A DNA stretch of 64,000 bases from a virus, in the IMG/VR virus record IMGVR_UViG_3300036795_000241, positions 1-64,000 of that record; one strand, 5' to 3'. Shown here one piece after another: positions 3,001 to 62,895 of the stretch (the first letter of the stretch is position 1; each line of letters starts with the position of its first letter). The translations under genes and the position numbers were made by a program. The notes beneath the pieces were generated by a model. It was not told the origin of the DNA, did not search any database, and was given only the letters and a program-made list of their open reading frames with translations.

Positions 3001-3649
3001 CGACACCGACGGACGGTATCTTCCCCAGTGCACCGCCCCACAGCGTTACCTCGCGCGTGAGGAGCCCGAATGCGCCGCCCTGCTGATTCGCCTGCTGCGT
3101 ACTCTGCCGCTGCCAATCGAGGAACGAACGGAAGCCGTTACCGAGGTTCCCGAGGCTATTGTCGAGATTGTCCGCCGAGCGGCCGGCTTTGTCCGTCTCC
3201 GTGGCGAAATCGGTCAGCTGCTGATCGGCCTGCCCGGCGCCACTTACGGCGAGATTCACCGTTTGCGTACTATCGCCGGGCTGCCAGTTCATCAAGCTTT
3301 GCAGCGAGTTAATCGCACCCGTACTTACCGTCGGGTTGATTACGAGGCTCTGCTCGAGATTGCGCCGCAGCTGATCGTATAGTGCGTCCGTGCCAACTAG
3401 CTTAGTATCGGCAACGGAGGTATCGAGGTTAAGCTTGTTCGGAGCATTTACGTCCGCCTGGAATACGTCCAGGCCAGCCTGCATCTGCGCCAATCGCGCT
3501 TGCGCAATCGACGTATCGAGGCCGAGCTTAGCTTGGTATTCGTTGTTCTCGAACGACATACCTTCGCTGCGGGCCGCCGCCAGATCGGCTTGAAACTGCT
3601 GCCGATTAAGAATCAGCCTCGCTTCAATTGCGCCCGCATCGAATGCCAC
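1..3649 (-). CDS. Tape measure protein (3' end lies outside the window)
   Basis: GTG at 3649 overlaps the upstream stop and reads MAFDAGAIEARLILNR, a typical TMP N-terminus. Ala/Gly-rich and directly downstream of the tail chaperones; contains a GGVIPGYGGGDIVPLLAEPGE segment. It is absent from the ORF track, consistent with no stop in the window. Confidence 0.9.
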   Translation of the reverse strand, partial: MAFDAGAIEARLILNRQQFQADLAAARSEGMSFENNEYQAKLGLDTSIAQARLAQMQAGLDVFQADVNAPNKLNLDTSVADTKLVGTDALYDQLRRNLEQSLVINPTVSTGAINSLQSLMNWQPGDSTQTVNLAVSGAGQADQQLTDFATETDKAGRSADNLDNSLGNLGNGFRSFLDWQRQSTQQANQQGGAFGLLTREVTLWGGALGKIPSVGVVPLWHIALDAVFESLIAVAAASAALTVGLIAMEPAAHDIYTQMLSIHDTSKALDQTIPPLTGHLHELQQAVAPGTLEIFGGALNLVNKQGSTFSTVAQQVVGGFDTWIAKLDIWANSQSHMGGILESGVGFLHQFMQIIDNVGLAFSNLIKADPGTAHFLGDVLVGASQLLDVITKLPTPILYSVLALHSFMLWGGLAASGITNLATAMFGGVQATARLAAGLGLFGDAGRAALVPLEDLRSKAGQLGSETSKTGGILGAMGALPLWGWAIVGAAAIGGLVWWMTQADSATHSFISSLDTGLGQLNASQAILAINTDIKSLDEQITQVPVHLAQANQAFANSTNQLGHGVGLVVSSFKDIGDVTQWGSGLSQWFHGLTEAAAGFWNSTVKAFGATKLQLGQGSDVQAYTGEIIKLSGEQDRLFHETGNLISQGFTYSQSLALMDLANVKAGDSYGVMKQKVDNLITGYSAMSIQGGILASAVDAVTFAAEQQQSQITAITGGWDAFMKTVSGGDSAFIKYEQSIAKVGTSAGVAGSSITGLNSQSLTLRSDWQSSLSSAGALYDALANQASAAGLGAKGTNMLSQAGKDLVAQLIPMAKGSKENTAQLYAFAQLAGYRGPDSLKSLTGWLGNTKNAAKNLDDITTTLTVDSSNLTQDMKNLANALNNNLNSAMAAAIFQAGGGQKAFDNFATVMKNTPHNITAVQNSAKGLARELLTTLGNTDQAKNEFIVFAEKLNLSHDDAERLWNSIVKGAQTMNQTHGARASLNADIQGILSRAPSAKNDMNILAAAVQKHGATAITYGPARAQLITDLEKSGVKAQTATGLVDDYIKKLQHIPPNENTNIGLTGKGTWSVQQQQVFAAGSSNLPSPLKRALGGVIPGYGGGDIVPLLAEPGETVVSKETSQVLAPVFAAAGVPGYAAGGVVGQFGGSVPGLGNWTLNEYSLSVKAMIQSVEDAIKGGVQTAQEAAANSAYLGNSGATTHSAQVAQAYAASILNQY

Positions 3650-31183: not shown

Positions 31184-34100
31184 ATGTTTAGTCCATTCCC
31201 GCTGAGAACGTGGCCCTTGTGTCTCGTCCTGGTTATCGTGCTCGGATGGCCGTATTTCGTGTGGTCGGGAGGGGAAGCTGCACGAGCGACGGTCCTGTGG
31301 TGCCTCTTCCTCTCCCTGTCCGTTATCGCCATTCGCATTCTCGTAGTCAGGAGCAAGCGTCATGTCCGCCGTTAACCAGAAGGGAGTCGCACCGAGGTCC
31401 GTTATCGGGGCAGTCTTCCTGTCCATCGTCATACCGGGTGCCGGCGCAATGTACGGTGGCAGGTCCGGCGACGGGATCTTCCAGATGATCCTCTTCGTCC
31501 TCGGATTCGTCATCGCAGTCGCGATCACCCCGTATGTCGTACTGCTGTTCCCGATTCTGTACCTGTTCGCCTTGCTCTCGGCGGCGTCATCCGTCAAGCA
31601 GTGGAACGCTGCACACGGGATCGTGTCGTAAGTGGGTCTCCGTAACCTATTCCGTACCCGCTGGATCGGCGACAATCCGATCAGCTGGGAAGAATGCTGG
31701 CGCTGCAATGGGGCGGGGTACCTCACGCTGCGCCCCGGAGTAGGTTACGTCCCCGCCTTCCGAATCGACGGTAATACGACCGAGTGCAACATCTGCGGAG
31801 CGTACAAGTTCGTACCGGTTTCTCGCCGGGCCGAAGGAGAAGTGGAGATGCGTAATGGCTGACGATGACGGCGTTCGGACCCTGGTTGCTATCGGAATCT
31901 TCCGCAATCGGAAGCCGGAGGCACCGGAGCCGAGCGCCGCAAAGGTGTTCGATGTCGATCTTGAGCTGAGCATGATCGCGCCGGAATCCCGCGCAAAGGT
32001 TAAACGGCTGATCGCGCTCGATCCGGCACTGGCGGAAGGTCTCATCGAGGTTGTCCGCAGCGCGTACGACGAAGGCTCGGACGACGCCATCGACACCATC
32101 GCTACAGGTACTACACACGAAAGGTAGGGGGCGCAATGTCTCGTATCGTAATGGTCGAATTCGCGGACAAGAAGGAAGCCGACTCGTTCGTTCGGGGGAT
32201 GCAGCCGAATGCCGAGACCGAGCTGAGTCTCGACACCGCAAAGGTCGTCGCCACCGTTGCGCGACCCGAGAAGTGGTGCACCTGCGCCTACGTCGAGACG
32301 GGGACCCGCCGTGGTCGCCGTTCGAAGAGTCGTTCGCGCGGTGACTTCGGCTGGACGCGCGGGGCGCACTACGGGTGGATGCTCTGCACGAAGTGTCACA
32401 AGCCGAGCAAGGCGATGGTCGAGCACTTCGTGACGACACTACTCGCTGGGGCGAACGACCTCACGCCGGAAATCCTCGGCGAAGGTGTCCCGATCTCGCC
32501 ACACCAGCGGTGGCTACTGGAAGGCGGTACCGAGATCGGGTACGGCGAAGGCTTCCCGGTCGAGGACGGCAAGCGCACGATGGTCGGTTAGGAGGAGACC
32601 TTTGTCGACTCAATCGGTCGTTCGCGACGTACACTTCGTGGTCGCAAATCACGCTACCGCCTGCGGGGAAGCAGGCGGTGCACTGCGACAGACCTTCGAG
32701 GTCACGTGCTGGAACTGTCGATCGACCGACGCATTCCTCGACGAGCGGATGCGCCAGAACCTAAGGGAGGCGAGTGATCGTGGCGGTGACCGGTCCGCCG
32801 AAGCTAGATACGTGTAGCGTTTGCGCTTCAACGCAGCTCGAACCGCACTGTGCCTCACCGAAGTGCGATTGGCGTAAGTGCACCGCGTGTCGCAATCTAC
32901 TCGGAATGTGGCACCTCTACCGTTCGAGGCTTAACAACGGATCGTTCCGCTACCACGTTCACGTCTCCGGAAAGGACGAACACTTTACGTAGAAGTGAGA
33001 GGACCGGCCGCCGCCAACGAACCGGTCCCCTCTACCGCCGAACCTCCGAACGGGAAACTCACTCTTTCCAGCGCCTCGTTCCACCTTCCAGGTTACCAGA
33101 GGTCAATAGTTTCGGCAAGTATCACACGAATGAGAGGAAAGGCGTGCCGACCGTTATTGAAGACGAGGCGTGGGAAGCCGTGTCGGATACCGAACGGAGT
33201 ATCGAACGCAATACGACACCGAGTAACGGCGCACAGTTGTGCACTGCGAAAGGCCTCGTAGCAGTAGCGAAGGCGCTGCTTGCGATTAACGAAACGCTGA
33301 GGGGATAACGTGGACGACACTTCCGCGACGGCCAACGGGAAAGACCGCGAATCCATCGCGAGACGTCATGTCGCGAATCCGCCGAACAAGTACACGGAAT
33401 TCGAACACTGCATCTACGACGGTGACGAGTGGCCCTGCGATGCCGCAATGCTCCTCCTCGCACTGGAGGAGAAGAAGCATCCGCCGGCGTACATAATCCA
33501 GGGCGTTAACGGTCACCTCGTACTGACCTCGGAAAGCGATTCCGCGCTCTCGTTCACGCTTGCGCTGGTCGATGAGAATTACCGTGCCTCCGTTCGCTTC
33601 ATGGTTGTCGATGAGCAGCTCATTCGCGATAACATCGCCACCGTGGCCAGCGAAGTGCGTAGCGGGAATCCCGGGTTGACAACCCGGTAGTTGTCTGCTA
33701 TACTGTCGGTATGACCGTAACCGCGACTACGGAGGTATAGACGCATGGCACAGGAACCCCGCGATCTCAGCCTCGAGGTTAAGCTAAAGGGTCTCGATGA
33801 GAAGATCGCCGAACTTCGCGAGGTGATCCGCGAGGCGAACGGAATGCTGAAGGATCTCGATCGCGAGAAGCGGAACGCGGCGAACCTGATCACCTCGCGA
33901 CTGAGCGCGGACGCTCTCGAAAAGGCCATCGGCGAACTCATCGATGAAGGGCTCAAGAAGTACGATGACTCGCTAGCGAAAGCAATCGATATGTCCGAGA
34001 AGCGGATCTGGAATCGCTTCGACCTCATCGTGGCAATCGCTCTCGGCGAAGATGCGCAGTCCGTTCGCCAAGGGAAGCCGTCTATTGACGATCTGATCCG

Positions 34101-36099: not shown

Positions 36100-38277
36100 G
36101 TGGTAGCCGCGACAGCATCCTCGCTACAAGAATGCATCGATAAGCTCGAGGACGTTACACAGGAGGGGTCGGAGTACCGAGCACTTTGTCCGAATCACGG
36201 CGGACACGCACTACTTGTCTTCATCGACAAACGGAACAAGAATAGTGGTCGCGTCGTATTCCAGTGCAAGGCAGGATGCGAATATAGCGAGCTTGTCGTA
36301 AAGCTTCGCGAGCTCGGGATTCAACCCTTCGGCGACAATCTCGAATTCGTATACACCGACGCTAACGGAAAGCCGCTGTTCATCAAGGTAAAGTACCGTC
36401 GCAAGTCCGACGGGCACAAGGCGCACTTCTACAAGTGCTTCGGGCGTAACGGCGTACCGATGAATCACAACAGCAAAACGAAGAATACGCGCGGACCGGA
36501 CGGTAAGTGCAAGCGATGCGGAGAGAAGGATGTTCCGCCGACACTATACCGACTACCTGAGCTTATCGAAGGTATCCGCAACGGTGCGGAAGTGTGGTTC
36601 TGCGAAGGCGAGAAAGATGCCGATGCCGTATTCGAACGTCGCGGAAAGCGGAACATTGTCGTTACGTCAACGATGAACGGTGCGGATGACTGGAATGCGG
36701 AATACCGAGATCAGCTTGCCGGTGCCGCGTCAATCGTCATCGTTGCACATAACGACACGAAACTAGCTACCGGTACGAATCCAGGTTATCGTGGTGCGTG
36801 GAAGCGCTACGTATCGCTAAGCGAGTTCTCGAGCGTATCCGTAAAGCGAGCCGCCGAAGGTAACGATGCATTCGATCACTTCGCAAACGACCACGAACTC
36901 GATGACTTCGTATCCGTTTCGCCAGAGGAACTAGCGCAATACGCGAATCCCGATACACCTACCGCATCGCTAGCTGGCGAATTCGAATACACGCAACCGG
37001 AATACGCGGATCGCTTTGTCGCATTGTACGGTGATCGCTTTCGGTATATCACCGCGGAAGAGTGCTGGCTGTACTACGATGAAGGTCGATGGCGCGAAGA
37101 TCAGTACGACACCGCATTCCACTTCGCCGAGACGCTATGTCGCGAGATCCTCAACGAAACGCCACGAATCGGCGATGACGGTAAGCGGAACCCGAACTAT
37201 CAAGCTGCGAAAGATCGAACTAGTGTCGGCAATATCGGTGCGATCTGTCGGATTGCCCGCAATCGCCGCCCAGTTGTCACGACACGTGAGAAGTTCGATA
37301 GCGACCCGTTCCTGCTGAACCTCGCAAACGGAACGTACGACCTGCGTGCCCGTGAGCTTCGCGGATACGATCAGTCCGATATGATCACGAAGCTAATCCC
37401 GTATCGCTATGACCCGGAAGCGAACGGTCCGGACTTCGATGAGTACTTCGCGGAAGTGCAACCGGACGAGCACTGGCGGGAGCAGATACTTCGCGATCTC
37501 GGATATTCGATAACCGGGAAGTACGGTGAGTTCGTATTCGTGCATGTCGGTAGTGGCGGTAACGGAAAGACCACGCTACTGAAGCTCGTTTCGCGGATCT
37601 TCCACGATTACGCAACCGCCGCTTCGTGGAAGATCCTCTCGAACAAAGCGGAAGACACGCACGAGACGATTCTAGCCGAGCTCGAAGGTAAGCGATTCGG
37701 GATTGTTCAGATGGGCGGACGCGCCCTCTCGTCCGAGCAGCTACGAACGATTGTCGCGGAGCCCGATTTCAAGGCACGTCGAATGCGCAGCGACTCCCGC
37801 ACGATTGAAGCTACGCACACGTTGCACGTGGCGCAGAACGATCCGCCTCCGATGAAGCAGCTTGACGCGAGTACACGTCGCCGAATCGTGGTCATCGAGT
37901 GGACCACCGTAATCGAAGATCAGGACGATACACTTCCCGATAAGCTTATCGCGTGCGGCGATTACGTATTGACGCGGATCATCGAGGCGTACTATCGCTT
38001 CAACCGGCACGAAATCGATAAGACCGCAACGGAAGCATACTTCGAGAAGAATCGCGTATACGCGTGGATCGCTGAGGCACTGGAGCCGGACGCTAATTCG
38101 TGGATCTCCACCGACGTGCTGTACGAAGCGTACAAGGAGTGGAGCGAAAGCTTCGGCGAGAAGGCGGAATCTTCTACGTCACTCGGTCGTACGCTAACGG
38201 CTCTCGGTTCGCTTCGTGACCGCAAATCGGAAGGCGGAAGGAAGCTGGTTATGCGCTCGGGTTTCCGATTCCGCTAG
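36100..38277 (+). CDS. DNA primase-helicase (Zn finger + TOPRIM + D5/P4-type SF3 helicase)
   Basis: CPNH..C..C, CEGEKDAD, AHND, LNLANG, GSGGNGKTT and RRIVVI motifs. Confidence 0.92.
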   Translation: MVAATASSLQECIDKLEDVTQEGSEYRALCPNHGGHALLVFIDKRNKNSGRVVFQCKAGCEYSELVVKLRELGIQPFGDNLEFVYTDANGKPLFIKVKYRRKSDGHKAHFYKCFGRNGVPMNHNSKTKNTRGPDGKCKRCGEKDVPPTLYRLPELIEGIRNGAEVWFCEGEKDADAVFERRGKRNIVVTSTMNGADDWNAEYRDQLAGAASIVIVAHNDTKLATGTNPGYRGAWKRYVSLSEFSSVSVKRAAEGNDAFDHFANDHELDDFVSVSPEELAQYANPDTPTASLAGEFEYTQPEYADRFVALYGDRFRYITAEECWLYYDEGRWREDQYDTAFHFAETLCREILNETPRIGDDGKRNPNYQAAKDRTSVGNIGAICRIARNRRPVVTTREKFDSDPFLLNLANGTYDLRARELRGYDQSDMITKLIPYRYDPEANGPDFDEYFAEVQPDEHWREQILRDLGYSITGKYGEFVFVHVGSGGNGKTTLLKLVSRIFHDYATAASWKILSNKAEDTHETILAELEGKRFGIVQMGGRALSSEQLRTIVAEPDFKARRMRSDSRTIEATHTLHVAQNDPPPMKQLDASTRRRIVVIEWTTVIEDQDDTLPDKLIACGDYVLTRIIEAYYRFNRHEIDKTATEAYFEKNRVYAWIAEALEPDANSWISTDVLYEAYKEWSESFGEKAESSTSLGRTLTALGSLRDRKSEGGRKLVMRSGFRFR

Positions 38278-38290
38278 GATGATAGACCCT

Positions 38291-38544
38291 GGACACGGTT
38301 TTGGACACGGTTACTACATGCGTCCTTGCTGGGAGGACACGGTTTGACATGGTTTTCAGTCTTTCACCCTCAGGGGAAAAAGGCGAACTATATGTCTATT
38401 GAGCCTACAATATCGTACGTCGATATTGTTTTTCTCCCATACAGGACTATAGTCTAAAAAACCGTGCCAACCGTGTCCCGCGCCAGTATACGAGATGTAG
38501 AACCGTGTCCAAAACCGTGTCCTAACCATGTCCGAACCGTGTCC
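38291..38544. repeat. Iteron/inverted-repeat cluster, candidate replication origin
   Basis: GGACACGGTT-type units at 38291, 38303, 38335, 38345; inverted AACCGTGTCC-type units at 38460, 38469, 38501, 38513, 38524, 38535; AT-rich centre. Confidence 0.8.
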
Positions 38545-38546
38545 AG

Positions 38547-38575
38547 TTGACACTCCGGTAAGAAGGGTATATACT
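38547..38575 (+). promoter_or_regulatory. Housekeeping-sigma promoter abutting the last iteron
   Basis: TTGACA-17-TATACT. Confidence 0.8.
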
Positions 38576-39252: not shown

Positions 39253-39498
39253 GTGACGATGAAATGGCGCAAAGCCAGCTACAGCAACCCGAGCGGTAAC
39301 TGCGCGGAGGTCTCGCAACCGGAACGGTTGGCAGAATGGCGCAAGCCATCACGCAGTAACAGCCAGGGTGCGTGCTTCGAGGTCGCGGAAGCGGACGGCA
39401 TAATCGCACTCCGCGACAGCAAGGACCCGCACGGTCCGCAGTTCCACTTCTCCGCCAGTGCGTGGCGGGCCTACACCGAGAGGATAAAGGCGAGCTAA
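39253..39498 (+). CDS. DUF397 protein with a duplicated WRKxSxS..C.EV motif
   Basis: WRKASYS..NCAEV, WRKPSRS..ACFEVA, LRDSKDP.GP and AW..Y. Confidence 0.9.
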   Translation: MTMKWRKASYSNPSGNCAEVSQPERLAEWRKPSRSNSQGACFEVAEADGIIALRDSKDPHGPQFHFSASAWRAYTERIKAS

Positions 39499-39721
39499 AT
39501 GGCGTTCATCGTAACGTACCGCAAGCCAGCGACCGAGTCCGGCGTTCCCGGACCGATCATCGAGCAGATCGCCATTCCGGACGAGCCTCAGCTGACCCAG
39601 ATCGTGGTGGTCGAGGAAGAGCTCACGTTCATCTTCGCGGACGGCGCGGAGAAGACCATCTACGACATACCCGATGAGTGGGTCACGGTGACGCAGAGCG
39701 GTGCGACAAGGGAGGCAACGA

Positions 39722-40183
39722 ATGGACACTGAGCAGGCGGACTACTTCGAGATACCGCCGGAGGGCGATCTCGTTCCGCCAGTGGGCTCCCGGGTCTTCG
39801 CCAAGCGAGAAGGCGAACCCGATCGTGTCGGTCTCGTGGTCGCGTGGGGTCGCGACAAAGCGGCGCACGAGCGTTTCGTCCAGCTCAAGAAAACGGCCGG
39901 CGAGAGCGCGTACGAGGCCCTGGTCGACAGCGAAGGACCGATTGTCGAGTTCGATGACGGCAACGGCGGACTGACCACCGAGTTCTACCCCGGGCAGAGC
40001 GTTACCGCGCTCAACCCGTATCAGATCCGCGAGAACATCCCGACCCGCACCGCCGGTATCGATGAGGCGGAAGCGAATCGTCTCGTAGATGCGTTCCGCG
40101 AGGGGTTCCCGGACGTTCACCCGGAAAGCAAGATTCGCGGTACCGTTACCGGTCGCCTGAACCCGCGGGACCCGGATTCCTGA
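39722..40183 (+). CDS. Hypothetical protein
   Basis: GGAGG RBS; high-GC3 codon use. Confidence 0.65.
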   Translation: MDTEQADYFEIPPEGDLVPPVGSRVFAKREGEPDRVGLVVAWGRDKAAHERFVQLKKTAGESAYEALVDSEGPIVEFDDGNGGLTTEFYPGQSVTALNPYQIRENIPTRTAGIDEAEANRLVDAFREGFPDVHPESKIRGTVTGRLNPRDPDS

Positions 40184-40190
40184 GGACCCA

Positions 40191-40316
40191 GGGTGAAATG
40201 GGCAGGCCAGGGTCCCAGTACTACATCGTATAAAGGTCCTGGCCTGCCCGACCTGCCCCGAAGGTATGCGACCATGTCAAATGACATGCCCCCACCATGA
40301 TCACTTCCTCAGGAGA
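40191..40316 (+). repeat. Conserved 126-nt hairpin element, copy 1
   Basis: Aligns with the reverse complement of 62556-62680; 15-bp stem with compensatory changes. Confidence 0.8.
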
Positions 40317-40484
40317 CTTTCGGTATGGGACAAGCTAGAAAGGATAAGCCGAAAATTTCATCCCGCGAAAGTATCCTGATTGAGCAGCAGGAGGAGCTAG
40401 CCAGGCGAAATGCGTGGCGAGAGCCAGTACGTGGAACCGTTGTTCGGTGACAAAGAAGCAAATATAACCACTTCCTAACAGGAC

Positions 40485-40513
40485 TTGACAGTGTGCCAGG
40501 TGGCGGGTAAACT
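40485..40513 (+). promoter_or_regulatory. Promoter of the candidate structured RNA
   Basis: TTGACA-17-TAAACT. Confidence 0.8.
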
Positions 40514-40520
40514 TGCTCCT

Positions 40521-40736
40521 GTGGACGGCAACCAGAAGCGTCGGAAGCGCTTTGACATCGGGGCAACTGGCGCTCGCACTTCCCCCCCAGGCGAGTGGCC
40601 GCCTTCGGGTCCGGTTTCCGTTCATGCACTATCGGCTCGGGGAGCTACTACCTAGTACGCGATCGTCCGGCGGAACCTTCTTCGCCCCCGTGAGAGGGAA
40701 CCCTGGACATCGTGAAAGGGTAGCTCCCCGAGCTGA
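40521..40736 (+). ncRNA. Candidate two-domain structured RNA
   Basis: Starts 7 nt after a consensus -10; 13-position and 17-bp closing stems with G-U pairs, a UUCG loop and a C7 loop. Confidence 0.65.
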
Positions 40737-40775
40737 CTTTATGCCTGCCGCTAAGCACGAGGGACGGACCGCGAC

Positions 40776-41702
40776 GTGGGACAAGACAGCTCGGGGAGCT
40801 ACTATCTCGGCAACGTACACCTGCAGACTGCACTCGGTGGCGCCGGCGGTAGCTACGCCGGTTCGAATATCGAACACGTGTACCACAAAACGGGCAACGA
40901 GGTTCGCGTAACGGATCCGCAGCTCGGTAAGTTCGCCATCTCCGCCGCCGCATATCAAGCGGTGCGCAACGCCGTCCTCCGTGAGCTAAGCGATAAGCTA
41001 CCGGCGCCTTTCGTTGGGCTGCTTAATGTAATGTCCGGCGAACAAGATCTCAACTTGACAGGCCGGGTAACTTCGGCTACACTGGAGGAAGATAAGCCAG
41101 TTGGCCGCGACGAGACGGAGGACGAGATGACACTGCGCAAACAGCCGATTACCCGCGAGGGAGCGGAGGCGCTGGCGCGGCGAGCCGCCGAGGAGCTGGC
41201 GTTCCTCGACCGGCTGGAGGACAAGTACGGCGCCGAGCCGCAGGACGGAGCGGTGATCCGGTTCACGAAGCAGTTCGCCTCACCGTCCTACGGTTACTCG
41301 GCACCGACATCACAGGTGGTCCGGTACACGTATGCCGGGATCCGCGCGAACGGGAAGTGGTACCTGACCGGCGCCAAAGGATCGCAGTCGTGGTCGTGGT
41401 TCGAGCTACTGAACTGGCTGGACGAGGGCGTTCCGGCGGAGCACTTTGTCGTCCTCTCCAGTGGCTTCGATCCGGATCCGGTCGACGTTACCGAGCGCAT
41501 TCTCGAGCACCGCGTCGTTTACGATGAGCCGGGTAGCGTTCCCGGAGGCGACATCGATGCGGCCACGACCGAATTCCACGATGCGGAATACGACATCATC
41601 TCCCGTGCGCACCCGCGCTTCACGCCGAATCAGATCGAGGCGTTTATCGCGGACGAGCACAACTGCGCTAAGTGCATTAGCATGCGGGAGGACGTCAAGT
41701 GA
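40776..41702 (+). CDS. Hypothetical protein with an internal promoter and start at 41127
   Basis: Single ORF; internal TTGACA-17-TACACT and GGAGGA-ATG. Confidence 0.6.
   Translation: MGQDSSGSYYLGNVHLQTALGGAGGSYAGSNIEHVYHKTGNEVRVTDPQLGKFAISAAAYQAVRNAVLRELSDKLPAPFVGLLNVMSGEQDLNLTGRVTSATLEEDKPVGRDETEDEMTLRKQPITREGAEALARRAAEELAFLDRLEDKYGAEPQDGAVIRFTKQFASPSYGYSAPTSQVVRYTYAGIRANGKWYLTGAKGSQSWSWFELLNWLDEGVPAEHFVVLSSGFDPDPVDVTERILEHRVVYDEPGSVPGGDIDAATTEFHDAEYDIISRAHPRFTPNQIEAFIADEHNCAKCISMREDVK
41055..41083 (+). promoter_or_regulatory. ORF-internal promoter
   Basis: TTGACA-17-TACACT. Confidence 0.75.
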
Positions 41703-42913
41703 CATTCACGCCAACGAAGGAGCAGGACGAAGCCCTCGACACGATCTTCCAGTGGTACAACGAAGGCGGAATGACGCTGACGATGGGCGGGTACGCGGGA
41801 ACCGGTAAGACAACGATTCTCGGCGTCCTCCCGGAGCACTTGTCCGGTATCCGAATGGTCTACGTGTCGTACACCGGTAAGGCGGTAAGCGTACTCCGCG
41901 GTAAGCTGCCGCGCGGAAGCGAATGCAGTACGATTCACCGGCTGCTCTATCATCCGCGTAAGGAACTGCTCTGCATCGAATCGGGTGAGCCGGTACCGTT
42001 TATCGGCGGTTACTGCTCCGAACACCACGACAATCCGCGAATTGAGCCGGACACGGAGTTGCCGGTTCCATGCGAAACCAAGTCGCACCTGAACTGGTCG
42101 CTGGTCCAGAATCCACTGGACGGGATCGACCTGGTCGTGGTCGATGAAGCGTCGATGGTAAGCGAGAAGCTATGGCAGGATCTGACGCGCTGGGACGTTC
42201 CAGTGCTGGCGGTCGGTGACCACGGACAGCTTCCGCCGATTCGGTCCGAGTTCAACCTGATGGCAAACCCGCACATCAAGCTCGAGAAGATTCTGCGGCA
42301 AGCCGCCGATTCGCCAATCATCCAGATGGCGACACAAGCGCGAACGGAAGGACGGATCAAGCCCGGCGATTACGGTCAAGGGTGCATGAAGATTCCGCAG
42401 CACCAGCTGTACCGCGTTCCGCTCAATCCGAACAACGGCGACCTCGCAATTGTCGGGTTCAACCGCACCCGCAACGAGCTCAACGAGTTCTACCGCCGAA
42501 AGAACGGGCGCAAGGGCGACCCCACGGTCGGTGACGTGGTCATCTGCCTGCGCAACAACTACGAGGCCGGCGTGTTCAACGGGATGCGCGGTACCGTGGT
42601 TGACTACGAGACGATGCCGTACGGCGACCGCGCTTTCGCGGAGATCGCACTGATGGATGAGGAGTTCGAATACACCGGCGAGATCTCCAGTGAGCAGTTC
42701 GGTAAGCCGAAGACGCTTTCCGATACCCCCCGGCGTTTCGGACTGTTCGATTTCGGCTATGCGATGACGTGCCACAAGGCGCAAGGCAGCCAGGCGAATC
42801 GGGTGCTGGTAGTCGAAGAGCGGATGCCCCGTGCCGACAATGAAATGCACGCGCGGTGGTTGTACACGGCAGCGACAAGAGCGGCGAAGGAGTTGGTCAT
42901 CGTTGGCCGTTAG
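41699..42913 (+). CDS. RecD/Dda-like SF1B helicase
   Basis: GYAGTGKT, TIHRL, VDEASMV, GDHGQLPP, TCHKAQGS and LYTAATRA motifs. Confidence 0.93.
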   Translation: MTFTPTKEQDEALDTIFQWYNEGGMTLTMGGYAGTGKTTILGVLPEHLSGIRMVYVSYTGKAVSVLRGKLPRGSECSTIHRLLYHPRKELLCIESGEPVPFIGGYCSEHHDNPRIEPDTELPVPCETKSHLNWSLVQNPLDGIDLVVVDEASMVSEKLWQDLTRWDVPVLAVGDHGQLPPIRSEFNLMANPHIKLEKILRQAADSPIIQMATQARTEGRIKPGDYGQGCMKIPQHQLYRVPLNPNNGDLAIVGFNRTRNELNEFYRRKNGRKGDPTVGDVVICLRNNYEAGVFNGMRGTVVDYETMPYGDRAFAEIALMDEEFEYTGEISSEQFGKPKTLSDTPRRFGLFDFGYAMTCHKAQGSQANRVLVVEERMPRADNEMHARWLYTAATRAAKELVIVGR

Positions 42914-46096: not shown

Positions 46097-46125
46097 TTGA
46101 CCTCCAGGTAGTTATCGGCTATACT
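46097..46125 (+). promoter_or_regulatory. Housekeeping-sigma promoter
   Basis: TTGACC-17-TATACT. Confidence 0.75.
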
Positions 46126-46134
46126 GGAATGAAT

Positions 46135-46205
46135 GTCACCGGGTCCCCGAAAGCCGGATGCAGTGAAGTTAGTACGGGACCCGGTGGCTTGCTAAGGAGA
46201 AGCAA
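46135..46205 (+). promoter_or_regulatory. Structured 5' leader with a GAA/AGUA internal loop
   Basis: 13-bp stem 46135-46147/46176-46188; second small hairpin with the RBS in its loop. Confidence 0.6.
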
Positions 46206-46428
46206 CGAATGGGCTGGCGAAGTGATGTACCGGGAGCAAGCGAGGCTCGGCGGATCACCCGCGAGAAGAAAGCCGTAAGCGAAAACCGAAGACGAAGCAC
46301 GCATTCCGACAATTCGTTCCCGCATTTCAGTACCCGCAGCGGACAGTGCATGTGCCTCTCGACATGCTGTCACGGGGTTAGCGGATGTCACTGCAAGAGC
46401 TGTCCGTGTCTAGGGAAGGGACACTAAA

Positions 46429-62555: not shown

Positions 62556-62680
62556 TGTCCGGAGGGAGTGATCATGGTGAGTGATGGCCATTCCACCAGG
62601 TTCTCATTTTAACCCGGCCTAGGGCATCCCAGGACCGGATGGCTATGTAGTATGCTGGCCCTGGGATGCCCATTTGACCC
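62556..62680 (-). repeat. Conserved 125-nt hairpin element, copy 2
   Basis: Inverted homologue of 40191-40316, at the point where + and - strand genes converge. Confidence 0.8.
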
Positions 62681-62682
62681 GG

Positions 62683-62895
62683 TTAGCCCTGGCCGGCCCA
62701 CTTCGTTAGCGGACCGCCGTTACCTGGTTCGCCTTCGCGCCAGCCGTGCCACCGGTCGCGCTCCACCGTTACGCCATTGAACGCATCGAGGCACGCGGTG
62801 AGAAAGCTAGCGAGGACGAAGTCGGGCGTATCGGATACGTTCTCGACGCTGTGCTTGTTGATGAGCTCCTCGAGCTCCTGCTTAAACGTCGCCAT
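62683..62895 (-). CDS. Small conserved phage protein
   Basis: LIN.HS.EN.SDTPDFVLA motif. Confidence 0.7.
   Translation of the reverse strand: MATFKQELEELINKHSVENVSDTPDFVLASFLTACLDAFNGVTVERDRWHGWREGEPGNGGPLTKWAGQG

Follow-up and report, generated by a model that had tools for sequence, protein, structure and literature searches.

A structured 5′ leader with a three-copy repeat upstream of a replication-module gene of an uncultivated soil phage: a candidate two-state translational switch

In satellite phage P4, the CI leader follows a seqA/seqB/seqC layout and belongs to the replication genes. In lambda cIII (through alternative structures) and in IS10 (through fold-back inhibition), mutually exclusive leader helices control the initiation of translation. 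In the T7 R sites and the lambda N leader, hairpins of early phage mRNAs are processed by RNase III, an enzyme that needs a duplex of roughly 20 bp. To our knowledge, the regulatory RNAs of actinobacteriophages are almost unexplored.

In phage P1, as PMC8198154 summarizes it (citing Citron and Schuster 1990), c4 is a complementary RNA lying between two copies of its target, the second of which is located at a translation start. A different kind of recognition is found among Gram-positive bacteria of high GC content, where the loops of 6C RNA bind G-rich ribosome-binding sites, that of dnaB included, and do so without a chaperone; the idea that C-rich stem-loops act as alternative terminators is mentioned in the same paper (PMC6486639).

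Here we analyze a locus from a soil metagenome, contained in an IMG/VR virus record of 75,683 bases that CheckV rates as complete; bases 1-64000 of this record are referred to below as the window. By folding the RNA, scoring codon usage and examining the nearest related phages, we hypothesize, with moderate confidence, that the 255 nt of 40521-40775 are the 5′ leader of the mRNA of ORF 40776-41702 and regulate it in cis through two helices that exclude each other. An earlier note on this DNA, made from the sequence alone, had read 40521-40736 (216 nt) as a novel phage ncRNA or riboregulator with two structured domains.

The phage, its promoters and the untranslated leader

The phage is uncultivated and its host is probably an actinobacterium, as a gene at 39253-39498 that matches DUF397 (Pfam E 1e-24) suggests; cultured phages are all distant, with a helicase identity of at best 35%. 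From about 18.5 kb on, the + strand carries the genes, including a replication module with a D5/P4-type primase (36100-38277) and a Dda-like helicase (41699-42913). ORF 40776-41702 is a gene of this module, and the helicase adjoins it downstream. An independent Logan assembly contains 901 bases of identical sequence with no difference, and although its contig possibly comes from the same sample, the leader sequence is not an artefact of one assembler. A search of sequencing runs matched a single DNA run, probably the source sample, and listed no RNA runs. Directly 3′ of the primase gene begins an array of GGACACGGTT and AACCGTGTCC units in opposite orientation, flanking an AT-rich hairpin with a T-run (38407-38429) and reaching the promoter at 38547. 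This textbook-like iteron array (38280-38560) is a candidate origin of replication, and since it is the better candidate, an origin at the hairpin locus described below was judged unlikely.

Transcription of the leader would start from a sigma-70-type promoter on the + strand (TTGACAG-N16-TAAACT, 40485-40513), with a predicted +1 near G40521. About 23 near-identical promoters of the host type (TTGACAG-N-(C)TGCTAKACT) lie between 18528 and 60288 of the window, all on the + strand, and this promoter is one of them, with a -10 weaker than the consensus GCTAKACT; the earlier description of a promoter-driven RNA agrees with a promoter of this standard type. Many of these promoters are followed by GGTGCTGTG(A/G)G and a Shine-Dalgarno sequence within 20-40 nt, and the only comparable promoter on the - strand (36066-36037) faces the primase leader. 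Other leaders of the phage are mostly 17-52 nt long (two longer tabulated values are artefacts of the start-codon rule), and the leader examined here is by far the longest, and the most densely folded, behind any of its promoters.

Several further repeats and hairpins were observed around promoters and genes. An 18-nt direct repeat, CACTTCCT.A..GGAGACTT, is present at 40302-40319 and 40469-40486 (78% identity); the first copy provides the Shine-Dalgarno sequence of a possible 41-codon ORF (40325-40450), and the second overlaps the -35 of the promoter at 40485. A strong hairpin, GGGCAGGCCAGG...CCTGGCCTGCCC, lies 3′ of gene 39701-40183 (segment 40200-40250), lacks a T-run and ranks among the most stable segments on both strands. 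Upstream of a small gene, the promoter at 46097-46125 leads directly into a 5′ hairpin of 13 bp (46135-46188), beside whose stem GAA stands on one strand and AGUA on the other; the fold of the wider stretch 46120-46300 (z -0.8) is within chance.

With 15 long genes from the window as the training set, codon statistics mark 40521-40775 as non-coding in all frames and on both strands (overlapping ORFs score -0.13 to -0.45), by which minus-strand or overlapping coding across the leader was ruled out. The earlier note had named translation and conservation of ORF 40513-40911 as one finding that would contradict an RNA: this ORF gives no sign of either, scoring -0.25 in its own frame and having no Pfam or PHROG match and no homologue among 5.8 billion proteins. 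That no credible ORF lies in the region is accordingly right for 40521-40775, but a coding ORF begins at 40776. An in-frame TAA at 40752-40754 closes the frame upstream, so that the GTG at 40776-40778 is the first possible start; its use is suggested by codon statistics, and its Shine-Dalgarno sequence (GAGGGA, 40759-40764) is weak and distant. The ORF (308 aa, + strand) is coding throughout: its first 117 codons (40776-41126) score +0.22, where off-frame scores are -0.29 to -0.37 and true genes reach +0.31 (sd 0.09).

Residues 1-117 of the product are an orphan extension, followed at residues ~118-235 by phrog_1342, a conserved phage domain of unknown function for which Pfam and PDB sequence searches gave no answer. 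No close relative of the 308-aa protein was found, the C-terminal domain alone being widespread; the ORF is no reverse transcriptase, and a retron or DGR was rejected. Inside the ORF, a second promoter of the standard type (TTGACAG-N16-TACACT, 41055-41083) is followed by a Shine-Dalgarno sequence (GGAGGA) and an in-frame ATG at 41127, the whole arrangement spanning 41055-41129 on the + strand. Initiation there gives a short form of 191 aa, which matches the homologues of related phages over their full length, so that a long product and a shorter one nested within it may both be made. To judge from its sequence, it can produce the 191-aa form from the inner promoter, with a short and unstructured leader, and the 308-aa form from the promoter at 40485, whose transcript alone bears the structured leader. 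In the two nearest phages the homologues begin at a site equivalent to ATG 41127, and since this start also has its own promoter, the long form may be the minor one.

The rod, the triple repeat and the alternative helix

The 216 nt of 40521-40736 fold at -112.8 kcal/mol (z -5.9 on the + strand, -2.3 on the - strand), and their stability signal comes from the rod, an irregular hairpin of 43 bp at 40632-40736 on the + strand (-67.1 kcal/mol; z -7.0 on +, -3.7 on -). Of the 4260 windows of 105 nt scanned along the + strand, that of the rod is the most stable once GC is corrected for. The rod's closing helix of 17 bp (40632-40648/40720-40736) and the 6-bp helices further in are present as previously described. 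The apical loop is CCCC (40686-40689), and a C5 run (40685-40689) spans the loop and its closing pair. In the loop described earlier as AGUA/GAA-like, AGUA (40654-40657) does face GAA (40714-40716), but a predicted pair between G40714 and C40658 leaves an internal loop of AGUA opposite AA (40715-40716), which is loop-E-like. When the arms are removed, the 71-nt interior (40649-40719) has a z of -3.5 on the + strand and +0.2 on the - strand, which identifies the rod as a feature of + strand RNA. Elsewhere, the region 62566-62715 ranks near the top for stability among 105-nt windows, and does so on either strand, suggesting a long DNA palindrome.

The arms of the rod belong to a repeat that is present three times. 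Copy A (40632-40650) forms the 5′ arm; the inverted copy A′ (40720-40739) forms the 3′ arm and is also the 5′ arm of an alternative helix; and copy A2 (40783-40807) occupies codons 3-11 of ORF 40776-41702, all on the + strand. A′ pairs with A over 17 nt (94%, one imperfect position) and with A2 over 20 nt (95%, one imperfect position), the latter helix (40720-40739/40783-40802) lying over codons 3-9. An A/A′/A arrangement with units of at least 11 nt is found once in the 64-kb window and in none of 73 related phage loci.

The same copies could act at the level of DNA, either as operators (AGCTC-N3-GAGCT) for a dimeric protein or as a decayed MITE-like inverted repeat with a solo end, with no function in RNA. 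Each copy has a 13-nt near-palindrome as its core, the core pattern occurs nine times with at most one mismatch when 2.4 are expected, and a metagenome search returned unrelated long perfect hairpins with the same core. We nevertheless consider this highly unlikely: the interior is paired on the + strand only; the five non-Watson-Crick pairs among the 43 of the rod are all G-U and none is A-C, as would not be expected of a DNA site or of a palindrome decaying neutrally; the identity of the repeats extends asymmetrically past the palindromic core; the whole genome contains no further copy; and the iteron array is a better candidate for an origin.

Folding of the leader without copy A produces the A′:A2 helix, and the predicted probability of being unpaired then falls from 0.18 to 0.05 for the GTG and from 0.72 to 0.25 for positions +4 to +15. 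Forced into one or the other state, the full leader has similar energies (-153.3 kcal/mol with the rod, -150.8 kcal/mol with the alternative helix), because the inner 26 bp of the rod persist in both. In the unconstrained ensemble at 37 C the rod accounts for 91-99.9%, depending on the length of RNA folded, and the alternative helix rises to 23-45% at 15-25 C in one folding context. With the rod dominating the ensemble, it is the predicted default and a flip would need help; indeed, at such an equilibrium the switch may never flip. Copy A2 could also be the remnant of a duplication.

We propose that the leader is a two-state translational switch, and we infer the exchange between the rod and A′:A2 from these models. 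Host RNA polymerase would initiate at about 40521, and in the nascent RNA the rod (A:A′) would form first; by holding A′ apart from A2 it would leave the start region largely open and so permit synthesis of the long protein form. If A′ swaps to A2, the inner part of the rod would stay folded while GTG 40776, together with positions +7 to +27, becomes buried by the A′:A2 helix, and the loading of ribosomes would be blocked. Reaching this alternative state would require a trigger that frees A′ or competes for it, candidates being a protein, an RNA, RNase cleavage, or low temperature. Pairing at the 5′ terminus and the long duplex may also affect the stability and processing of the mRNA.

These last effects might be the only ones. 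The rod would then be an RNase III-type site or a stabilizer of an early or middle mRNA, comparable to the T7 R sites and the lambda N leader, the pairing at the 5′ end would protect from 5′-end-dependent decay, and A2 would play no part in switching. The 43 predicted pairs of near-continuous duplex, interrupted by small bulges and including 17 bp without interruption, provide the roughly two helical turns of an RNase III substrate and exceed 20 bp; strong hairpins also stand at the 5′ end of the leader at 46131-46195 and of the leader in a related phage (L106, below); and the rod is heavily favoured at equilibrium. What processing alone leaves unexplained is a third copy, of 19-25 nt, exactly over the first codons, and we regard the explanation as improbable. 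Both roles are compatible in our model, in which RNase III would find a natural substrate in the rod, and the 5′ pairing would stabilize the mRNA, without prejudice to the two-state switch.

Domain 1, the C-rich loops and related phages

The nearest phages were recovered through an alignment of helicase homologues (59% identity for L095/G002, 57% for L106/G001, and 54-55% for L096-L098) and have the same promoter type. About 50 helicase homologues with 53-65% identity are present in Logan and JGI; the helicase relatives in GTDB are cellular RecD-like genes of Patescibacteria and were set aside as of no use for comparison. The homologous gene of each of the two syntenic relatives is likewise preceded by a structured leader of atypical length. 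That of L106 (IMGVR_UViG_3300036795_000211, leader region 3345-3470) is ~90 nt long (z -3.4) and starts with a 16-bp hairpin, and that of L095 (IMGVR_UViG_3300032770_000019, leader region 3030-3195) is ~160 nt long (z -3.0) and includes an ACCUCC able to pair with the Shine-Dalgarno sequence GGAGGU; a canonical terminator lies just upstream of the L095 promoter.

Searches for the leader itself returned no homologue. There was none by blastn in 50,697 phage records, and blastn against the loci and whole genomes of the related phages gave short chance matches only. The 14-nt core had 66 single, scattered matches in IMG/VR, which we take as chance. The pattern of paired arms had no match in IMG/VR and 22 in metagenome contigs, all with unrelated interiors and some of them being other long palindromic elements. 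A pattern combining the promoter with the C7 run described below had three unrelated matches in IMG/VR, L106 being oddly missing from the list. Near-perfect palindromic hairpins of ~125 nt, starting CCCCTCGCGACTCGGGGAGCTCCCTCC, were observed repeatedly on several contigs (L074, L076, L079, L088, L089 and L092) of two related metagenomes (Ga0123355 and Ga0123356); this family looks like a MITE- or REP-like repeat and shares only the 11-nt search core with the rod.

The first 105 nt of the transcript, domain 1 (40521-40625, + strand), form a multibranch fold closed by 40521-40533/40613-40625, in which 12 of 13 positions pair, two G-U pairs included, as the earlier note had it. The GAAGCG/CGCTTT hairpin and the CGCTCGC/GCGAGTG stem reported there are likewise present; the c(UUCG)g hairpin appears in neither the MFE structure nor the centroid. 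Domain 1 folds at -44.7 kcal/mol (z -1.4 to -1.6 on the + strand, -0.85 on the - strand) and its stability is matched by 16 of 200 shuffles. By folding energy it is indistinguishable from chance, and of the two domains once described only the rod stands out.

One piece of domain 1 has other evidence in its favour. CGCTCGC (40571-40577) pairs with GCGAGTG (40591-40597), with ACTTCCCCCCCAG between them, and the resulting hairpin (CGCUCGC/GCGAGUG in the RNA, 40571-40597, + strand) exposes a C7 run (40582-40588) within an 8-nt apical loop, UCCCCCCC (40581-40588). The run is the single one on either strand of the 75.7-kb genome. The related 73.7-kb genome G001 also contains a single C7 run, and this lies in the 8-nt apical loop, ACCCCCCC, of the L106 leader hairpin, before the homologous gene; under uniform placement in G001 the chance of the right strand and a position within 600 nt upstream of the gene is, by our own arithmetic, ~0.4%. 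The C7 run is absent from the related genome G002. A C7 loop that is unique in both phages suggests that the C7 hairpin is probably functional. As for a partner in cis, the best duplexes of the loop with the two translation start regions or with the rest of the leader did not exceed those of shuffles. Eight G5 runs occur on the + strand, one of them in AGGTAGGGGGCGCA, the ribosome-binding region before ATG 32136 (32118-32138), which is a conceivable target for a C-rich loop.

C-rich loops at two hairpin tips (the C7 run and the C5 run of the rod) and a promoter directly upstream invite the ncRNA reading of the earlier note. The RNA would be a free-standing sRNA of ~216 nt, with the rod as an unconventional terminator or 3′ stabilizer and the loops binding G-rich ribosome-binding sites in trans, as 6C loops do with sites including that of dnaB (PMC6486639). 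The recurrence of the C7 loop, again unique, in the leader of the related phage would fit such a role. Yet the rod is followed by ACUUUAUGCC, and a terminator scan found no terminator-like site or U-run 3′ of it, even though canonical hairpin-plus-T-run terminators are used elsewhere in this region of the phage and by a relative. The coding ORF that bears a copy of the rod arm begins 40 nt after the end of the rod, the C7 hairpin of L106 clearly opens the leader of an mRNA, no run of six or more G with which the C7 loop could pair exists on the window's + strand, and no 6C model matches. A free-standing sRNA is thus unlikely, and the third copy of the repeat lies beyond the 3′ end it had been given. 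Transcripts from 40521 would instead read through into ORF 40776-41702. What stands of the proposed riboregulator is a cis-acting structured leader, with a promoter, a non-coding sequence, strand-specific and stable structure, and no terminator of its own.

Comparison with known systems

The earlier note had suggested a comparison with Rfam, and no family there matches the leader. Over the whole window Rfam gave no hits at the gathering score. When E values up to 10 were allowed in 40300-41200, only weak chance hits were obtained (miRNA precursor models, sRNA and viral cis-element models), those of the miRNA precursors fitting the repeat arms; the 6C (RF01066) and C4 models had no hit in the same region at this threshold. 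ARAGORN found no tRNA, tmRNA or tRNA-like gene. The Rfam comparison ruled out known families such as riboswitches, ribozymes, 6C, C4, Y RNA and pRNA.

The similarity to 6C RNA drawn by the earlier note lies in C-rich apical loops on hairpins and in a setting that is probably actinobacterial, and it is useful as a working analogy. Membership fails, because the 6C model has no hit even at E 10. The C7 loop and the C5 run, as a possible 6C-like pair of loops, are 100 nt apart on a much larger RNA, and 6C is a free RNA with a terminator of its own, whereas here the loops are carried on a 255-nt mRNA leader encoded by a phage.

With P1/P7 c4 immI and P4 CI the locus has in common an untranslated leader close to the promoter; its central segment is complementary to one copy upstream and another downstream, the latter placed where translation of the next gene begins (here A2, codons 3-9). 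This order of target copy, complementary RNA and second target, all in one leader, is the ground for supposing that the leader is processed to a stable small RNA containing A′, which would pair in trans with A and A2 and shut off the replication genes. In the known systems, however, the complementary segment is exposed by loops of a tRNA-like RNA that arises through processing, whereas A′ is locked within a 17-bp duplex of the 43-bp hairpin and predicted to be paired with A at 0.91-0.999; the leader has neither sequence nor covariance-model likeness to c4 or CI, and no tRNA-like fold. Moreover, c4 and CI provide the immunity of temperate elements, and the complete genome contains no match to Phage_integrase or Resolvase, that is, no tyrosine or serine integrase, which makes an immunity function unlikely. 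A c4- or CI-type RNA is, in our estimation, a highly unlikely reading of the locus.

The cis and trans readings might also be combined. In a dual-purpose riboregulator, a three-copy strand-exchange switch in cis would time the translation of the replication-module gene, and a processed RNA, in which the A′ arm and the C-rich loops could act in trans, would find its targets either in sister transcripts (as with P1 c4 and P4 CI) or in G-rich ribosome-binding sites of the host, for example that of dnaB (as with 6C). This could be a kind of regulator not described for actinobacteriophages, and we think it very unlikely. Should the two-state switch in cis be confirmed, it would be a compact example of a replication-module gene controlled by the exchange of a hairpin arm with a copy inside the coding region, and the phage would be a second setting for the C-rich-loop recognition known from 6C RNA. 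Represented by one orphan sequence of a soil metagenome, the locus has strong structural statistics, and its value is that of a well-defined candidate.

Like lambda cIII and IS10, the leader has one segment with two alternative pairings, one of which covers the start region of an ORF; it differs from them in that the competing arms are near-identical repeats of 17-20 nt and in that the open state is an unusually long rod. Like the T7 R sites and the lambda N leader, it presents a long irregular duplex in the untranslated part of a transcript of the host RNA polymerase, but the third copy of the repeat has no counterpart there. In layout, then, it most closely resembles P1/P7 c4, P4 CI and the mutually exclusive helices of the lambda cIII kind, and in its loops it resembles 6C; by these analogies the element is best read as an orphan example of a switch-like mRNA leader, a member of none of the families listed here.
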